Positions 1 through 654 of a stretch of 64,000 bases of DNA are shown here, piece by piece. The stretch covers positions 128,001 to 192,000 of the forward strand of contig OZ219791.1 in assembly GCA_964291215.2 (NCBI GenBank), read 5' to 3'. The notes below the pieces were generated by a model that made no database searches, was not told the origin of the DNA, and saw only the letters and a program-made list of their open reading frames with translations. The translations under genes and the position numbers were made by a program. The first letter of the stretch is position 1; every line of letters begins with the position of its first letter. This DNA is from Alphaproteobacteria bacterium (GTDB lineage: Bacteria > Pseudomonadota > Alphaproteobacteria > MPNO01 > UBA830).

Positions 1-15
1 CTAGACTCGCTGCAC
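1..15 (-). mobile_element. 5' end of an ORF-less group II intron copy that continues off the window edge
   Basis: ctagactcgctgcac is identical to 640-654 and 25663-25677; the minus strand reads GTGCAGCGAG. Confidence 0.6.
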
Positions 16-654
16 GCTGACCCAACCATACCCACGGCATCTCCGAGCGTTTGCTCCGTCCTTCGGCCTTGCAGTCTGTCGGTCGGTGCCGGTCTCTGCG
101 TACCGGCTTGACCTGCCGCATAGGCTACCTGAGCCCTGAGGTCCTCGCTCGGGACGGGTTGTGTTGTCCCGCCCGTCAACGCTTAGGCGACCTCATCCGC
201 CAGTCAGGAGGACTCCGCGTCCTTTCCCGTCTCCCGGTTATAGACGCGGTCCTTGACGGGTCGCTTCATCCTGTCTGTCCTCCTCACCTTCCGGTCTTTC
301 ACTGCTGATCTGTCCCGAATTGCCGCCGTCTGTACCCCGGGGAACCCGATGCGTGTTCCTCAGTTCTTCCGCATCGACACTGGCCATCGGGTAGCAACCT
401 TGGCGTTCGCCGCCTATCCCACAAATCAGCTTCGTGTGGGTGGGGAATTTCGGGGCTTCCCGTTCGCTTTCGCCCTCCGGTTTGCTCGCCGCCCTGGCTG
501 ACCGGACCGGCTGGACACTGCGTTCCAGCCAGCCCACGACGGCTTTCTACGTCCCAGCTCGCTGATCCAGGGTCGCCCCTGAACCAATGCTACGGCGCCA
601 AACTGAGAATTGCGGGACTTTCACCCGCAAGATCAGCAGCTAGACTCGCTGCAC
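16..654 (-). mobile_element. ORF-less group II intron, partial copy (5' part up to domain IV), nested in the RT intron
   Basis: Near-identical to 25028-25677; minus strand starts GTGCAG and has the GGTGAAAGTCC domain I motif. Confidence 0.75.

Follow-up and report, generated by a model that had tools for sequence, protein, structure and literature searches.

At the left edge of the window, the 64,000-nt stretch C2:128001-192000 of contig OZ219791.1 (here C2), a group II intron without an open reading frame (ORF) appears to begin inside another intron of its kind, and the question is which intron entered which, and by what guide. The first 15 bases (window 1-15, minus strand) are the 5' end of an ORF-less intron, the reverse complement of GTGCAGCGAGTCTAG that is common to ORF-less copies, and they are joined directly to gctgacc. 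In an uninterrupted copy the same bases come after agtcaag, at 25027/25028. The original prediction had described this junction correctly, and read it as an intron inserted into itself by the same ribozyme at a near-cognate site. We favour with good confidence a different explanation, a twintron, likely inactive, that arose when a sibling intron (variant B1) entered domain III of an intron of variant A, likely by retrohoming via complementary guide loops.

The sequence to the left of the window agrees with what had been expected there. It completes a full inner B1 copy of 882 nt (C2:127134-128015), of which the remaining 867 nt (C2:127134-128000) hold EBS1 GCUGAC, EBS2 UAACCAU and a damaged domain V. 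The junction agtcaag|gtcgggtagg is found at C2:127133/127134, followed by the 201-nt 3' part of the outer variant A intron (host domains III-VI, C2:126933-127133) and then by an RT-encoding intron. The 5' part of the outer intron, 639 nt, lies at window 16-654 (minus strand). The inner 882 nt lie precisely, on the same strand, between contiguous positions of the outer intron, and no base has been gained or lost. All full copies have the boundaries GTGCAG...CCTACCCGAC, which are GUGYG-like, differing at position 5, with a 3' end of the AY type.

The outer intron in turn lies in the RT-encoding group II intron, a putative member of bacterial class E. The 5' 125 nt of this host are at window 655-779 (minus strand) and include the IBS1 of variant A (GCAGGC, window 655-660); its sister copies match RF02005, RF00029, PF00078 and TIGR04416. 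The remainder of the host, with a second RT intron head to tail, occupies C2:123815-126932. Both are enclosed by an IS66-family element, identified by its termini, target duplication and flank identity, whose right part is at window 780-1019 (plus strand, terminal repeat 1005-1019) and whose left part is at C2:122598-123814. It has inverted GTAA-type termini and an 8-bp target duplication, GCTTTGAT, at window 1020-1027 (plus strand); the same eight bases precede C2:122598. Its flanks share 76-89% identity with PF03050-matching stretches; window 756-1004 alone has no Pfam match, and tblastn of the transposase of another IS66 family against the flanks gave no match. Read along the minus strand, the order is IS66 part (window 1019-780), RT intron (125 nt, 779-655), variant A (639 nt, 654-16), inner intron (882 nt), variant A (201 nt), RT intron (1,495 nt), second head-to-tail RT intron (1,623 nt) and IS66 part to C2:122598. 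This anatomy bears out the proposed layering of ORF-less intron in ORF-less intron in RT intron in IS66. Also among the mobile elements, at window 9242-14554, is the one rRNA operon that was detected in this assembly; four tRNAs lie beside it.

Two trivial origins of the junction can be discarded. The window starts 128 kb into a 3.56-Mb contig, so it is not a contig-edge artefact, and the inner and outer copies differ by 69 substitutions and 11 indels, so it is not a tandem duplication. A more general concern is that the nest was made by assembly or error correction of repeats; it rests on one assembly, and none of five independent runs, which appear to come from other samples, spans the junctions. 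This origin is nevertheless very improbable, as there are two nests with different flanks and base-precise, guide-matched junctions. The second B1-in-A nest (C1:1454149-1455850) has the same two junctions and single-copy flanks. The outer copy of this nest interrupts a gene that is itself single-copy; on the opposite strand the frame of this gene continues across the junction (201 aa | 282 aa). The gene that this nest interrupts in antisense encodes a hydrophobic, transporter-like protein.

The inner and outer introns are siblings rather than copies of one ribozyme, contrary to the initial reading. The inner copy shares 88.4% identity with the uninterrupted copy of variant A (851 nt, window 24827-25677, minus strand; intact EBS1 at 25399-25404). 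In a tree of 14 rows, from which the IS-interrupted A copy and the partial copies were left out, the two inner B1 copies form a 100/100 clade inside the B group, apart from the seven A rows. Both EBS1 and EBS2 differ between the variants. The IBS1 of the inner intron, GTCAGC within domain III of the outer intron (window 16-21, minus strand), pairs with B1 EBS1 at six of six positions, all Watson-Crick. The IBS2, ATGGTTG (window 23-29, minus strand), pairs with B1 EBS2 at seven of seven positions including one G-U, a value combined from two overlapping 6-nt registers. The site is thus fully complementary to the loops of the intron that occupies it, and is near-cognate only for variant A.

For variant A itself to have entered another A copy at a near-cognate site, with the inner copy diverging later, there is the fact that its EBS1 (GCUUGC) pairs with the 5' exon GTCAGC at five of six positions, one of them G-U, and that the 3' exon begins with C; both points had been made in the original prediction. 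We regard this origin as hardly credible, since the inner copy is 69 substitutions away and groups with copies of another B variant (B2), and since both of its own loops fit fully where the EBS2 of variant A fits at only three of six positions; the inner sequence refutes it unless the two loops became perfect matches later than the insertion.

The weight given to EBS1 rests on a control. An exact domain V pattern served to retrieve 66 loci from 21 further assemblies; six A copies from this genome with a damaged EBS1 hairpin, and loci where no 5' end was found, were dropped before the count. Among 37 distinct intron/site pairs with 18 different EBS1 sequences, 32 pair at six of six positions, four at five and one at a single position. 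Mean pairing is 5.76 for cognate and 2.92 for non-cognate combinations, and full pairing occurs in 37 of 1,208 non-cognate combinations. The EBS2 registers are the best of 28 tries per site and so carry less weight; only EBS1 has a fair control.

Variant B2 (EBS1 GCCGAU) has its insertion point where the ORF of the RT intron begins (C2:931508, 1283425 and 15683). At C2:14821 a third, decayed intron type is present a few bases downstream.

The target had been placed in domain IV; it lies in domain III. The basal stem that encloses the site, CGGAGC/GCTCCG, covaries among relatives (TAGGGT/GCCCTA, CGGCGT/ACGCCG, CGTGGC/GCCACG and CGGTGT/GCACCG), in 15 distinct rows from 34 regions, five regions being unmatched by the pattern. 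Its 5' strand in the outer intron, CGGAGC, is at window 53-58 (minus strand), and the partner strand lies past the inserted intron. The next helix, which we read as domain IV, is a hairpin of 16-21 nt, too small for an ORF. In the uninterrupted copy domain III spans 25002-25070, with the empty site at 25027/25028, and domain IV spans 24982-25001 (20 nt), both on the minus strand. We numbered the domains from the succession of helices ahead of domain V, drawing also on what is generally known of group II introns.

The sequence GGGTCAGC|CTT at the insertion point is almost invariant across the family, and the target of B1 is therefore present in every sibling, B1 included. The idea of a self-match survives in this limited form, as domain III of B1 carries the same IBS1 and B1 EBS1 matches its own intron, yet there is no B1-in-B nest among the four B copies with their own domain III. 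The genome has 13 such sites, and the two that are occupied are both in A copies. The site in B1 itself has one IBS2 mismatch. Two of seven perfect sites are occupied and none of six mismatched ones, a difference that is not significant (about 0.27 by hand). Among relatives with nested siblings, the inner intron in OZ219747 mismatches its own site and that in OZ219893 matches its own site better than that of its host. We make no claim of self-avoidance for B1, as the data are too few and the OZ219893 relative points the opposite way. Elsewhere, 43 metagenome matches to the domain III junction include none with an intron exon or intron body, and the junction was found in none of five genomes that bear the family.

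Two nests with the same junctions could reflect two insertions or one. The two nests are likely to represent two insertions of B1 into A copies that were already dispersed, on the basis of sequence distances. This is favoured because the outer copy at C2 is nearer to three uninterrupted A copies (3-4 substitutions) than to the outer copy at C1 (7 substitutions). Alternatively B1 inserted once, and A containing B1 was carried to the second locus through DNA recombination, in the form of gene conversion among A copies, or travelled there as a composite RNA. The inner copies differ by 8 substitutions, similar to the 7 between the outer copies, as a single insertion followed by copying would have it. 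Mosaic copies exist, such as the B2 copy at C2:15683 with its A-like stretch, and speak for this history as well. The distances to the uninterrupted copies oppose this history, and the split domain III should prevent a composite RNA from splicing as one unit; we consider a single insertion possible but the less probable course. It concerns the second locus only, and retains the mechanism of sibling guides at the first.

Two insertions or one, the nest is likely to be inactive now, judging from damage to its sequence. The domain V hairpin is intact in none of the copies here; all 13, from two lineages, lack the same 7 nt and read TTGAA-CCGGG, where every relative row listed reads TTGAAGCCGTA(C/T)CCGGG. 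The deletion point in the uninterrupted A copy is 24968/24969. With these 7 nt go the lower stem and two bases, GC, of the AGC triad, and the predicted fold is -6.9 kcal/mol here against -15.7 kcal/mol for the hairpin of intact relatives. The AGC triad and AC bulge by which a group II intron is recognised are both present in the relatives; none of the 13 copies here has the pair. By comparison with these relatives, the copies in this genome have decayed, and the family they belong to has a domain V that is atypical even when intact. A further 6 nt of the EBS1 hairpin are absent from seven of eight aligned A copies, including both outer copies (window 385-405, minus strand, at C2, from alignment and fold). 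By inspection, the exon of the outer copy at C1, GCGAGC, pairs at six of six positions with the intact EBS1, and the lesion in the hairpin would therefore have arisen after homing. An identical 12-nt deletion is shared by copies with two different sets of substitutions a few bases from it, which points to recurrent loss or to short conversion tracts.

These losses belong to a wider pattern of small deletions in repeats. Self-BLAST of repeat copies gave at least 4,680 distinct indels among the matches listed, of which at least 2,895 are of 5-7 nt; indels of 5, 6 and 7 nt number at least 600, at least 1,491 and at least 804, compared with at least 492 of 1 nt and at least 69 of 4 nt. Smaller peaks are seen near 12 and 18 nt among the matches listed. 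Indel-rich repeats include window 22112-29345 and 42377-45600. Single-copy DNA compared with three relatives has no excess of deletions (148,681 aligned bases contain 11 clean gaps, of which 4 are 5-7 nt long). The deleted bases show a weak GTCGA-like preference and excess microhomology; there is no motif at a fixed distance within 45 nt and no hairpin bias. MutS is present in the genome, in which neither Ku nor an Argonaute Piwi domain was found. Two CRISPR arrays (C1:574324-581182 and C2:2068555-2069545) hold 110 spacers, whose comparison with the genome gave nothing beyond chance-level matches of 17-25 nt; none of the spacers matches the resident mobile elements.

The domain V deletion alone might be an artefact even if the nest is real. 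Runs X1-X3 show an intact domain V without the deletion, and in X1 one flank is the same as the 3' exon, itself single-copy, that adjoins the copy at C2:2804764. We judge this unlikely, although less so than an artefactual nest. Several points speak against an artefact of either kind. Single-copy DNA is free of the deletion excess, deletion alleles of the same class, although not the domain V deletion, were seen in independent contigs (places 8790, 8849 and 10676) and the copies retain private substitutions.

We return to homing of a sibling guided by its loops as the preferred explanation; B1 was likely led to domain III of variant A by its pair of guide loops, both of them complementary to a sequence that the whole family has there. 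The RNA of B1 would have been spliced, bound by an RT supplied in trans and reverse-spliced into the DNA of variant A. The losses from domain V, from the EBS1 hairpin and close to the 5' end would have come later. In a transcript of the active nest B1 would need to splice out first, before A folds, because domain III is split.

The RT could most obviously have come from the co-resident RT intron. It has 53 near-full copies genome-wide, including those at window 23320-29106 and 43713-45376. These RT introns lie antisense in one IS66 site, and 7 of 58 of their 5' ends come head to tail after the 3' end of another copy. They too have suffered in domain V, where 40 copies lack 7 nt and 25 retain them. 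The genome has 19 matches to PF00078; no intact RT was found, the longest frame among the 53 near-full copies being 386 aa, below the TIGR04416 cut-off. Close homologues of the host RT are present in all five of the family-bearing relative genomes tested (best identity 62-84%), an observation of association only.

The ORF-less family is present in 21 assemblies (loci L015-L080), mostly of Alphaproteobacteria but also of Binatia and two Bacillota, and no ORF-bearing member was found among these loci. In the relatives' atypical domain V the AGC triad lies opposite GAA, and no tested relative matches the domain V/VI model RF00029 at E<=1. Intact relatives score 54.8-68 bits against RF02003 (group-II-D1D4-4), with four of the five relative loci scanned exceeding the cut-off of 49; the copies in this genome score 28.7-46.5 bits, below it (inner copy E 3e-8). 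Nests of siblings also occur in relatives at a different site, the linker between domains V and VI, with six in OZ219747 and one in OZ219893. In these the inner EBS1 matches the site (GCCCCC, CCCUCC) and the inner intron is 94% identical to its host. A third site, in domain I, is indicated by L056:96-1641 and L029:1-260, both of which have a sibling nest's 3' junction there (GGAGGGC|CGTAGC); in L056 two 5' parts seem to have been collapsed by recombination. The 6-nt deletion in most A copies here coincides with this domain I site. The intron was found in none of 40 relatives of the host, the domain V pattern in none of 400 genomes of the phylum, and a plasmid search gave no match.

Group II introns of Methanosarcina acetivorans reportedly home into intron ORFs, going by the title of a 2003 paper by Dai and Zimmerly. 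If that title is taken as it stands, variant B2, which enters at the start of the RT ORF, is closer to the Methanosarcina case than is B1, whose target is the ribozyme core of an ORF-less sibling. The Methanosarcina introns are described as homing repeatedly and site-specifically into other group II introns, with multi-layer nests in non-essential DNA (PMC4424553, PMC2882425). An ORF-less intron inside an ORF-less sibling is likewise already published. In Thermosynechococcus elongatus (T. elongatus) the ORF-less TeI3i lies inside the remnant ORF of the ORF-less TeI3h, according to Mohr et al. 2010 (PMC2882425), in which an RT acting in trans on the introns that lack an ORF is shown. The TeI3/TeI4 twintrons resemble ours in that sibling families are distinguished by their EBS and ORF-less introns home into relatives, one of them ORF-less. 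They differ in the target, which for TeI3/TeI4 lies in domain IV, at the start of the RT ORF or of what remains of that ORF. Here the target lies in domain III, and domain IV, a 20-nt hairpin, keeps no remnant of an ORF; the introns are nested three deep, and no member of the family with an ORF was found. In the Trichodesmium Tr.e.I7/I8 twintron, too, a domain of the ribozyme, domain I, is interrupted by the inner intron, and splicing in vivo was shown to proceed inner first (PMC4649490). By the same account those are distantly related ORF-bearing introns in a host gene, unlike the close and likely dead ORF-less siblings described here. No paper on this ORF-less family, or on an intron that targets domain III of a sibling, came up in a literature search of limited coverage.

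The family escapes the standard domain V model, and surveys are therefore likely to undercount it; domain-V-based surveys such as PMC8919778 would likely miss it. The excess of 5-7-nt deletions in repeats may be the more surprising lead, and would imply an unknown way to disable mobile elements. Whether splicing proceeds in order when domain III is split, and whether such siblings avoid themselves, could be examined with this nest. It would be a natural case of guide re-targeting, with two loops altered and the aim shifted to the ribozyme core of the family itself, which offers a conserved, multi-copy landing site at little cost to the host. We propose only tentatively that the ORF-less family, with its atypical domain V, repeatedly re-aims its guides at the conserved catalytic core of its kin, at domain III in this genome and at domain I and the linker between domains V and VI elsewhere, and that an undescribed process of this host recurrently cuts 5-7 bases from multicopy mobile DNA, always at the same places, and so disabled the triad in all 13 copies. 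If true, such re-aiming of guides at kin would amount to intron-on-intron parasitism within one family.
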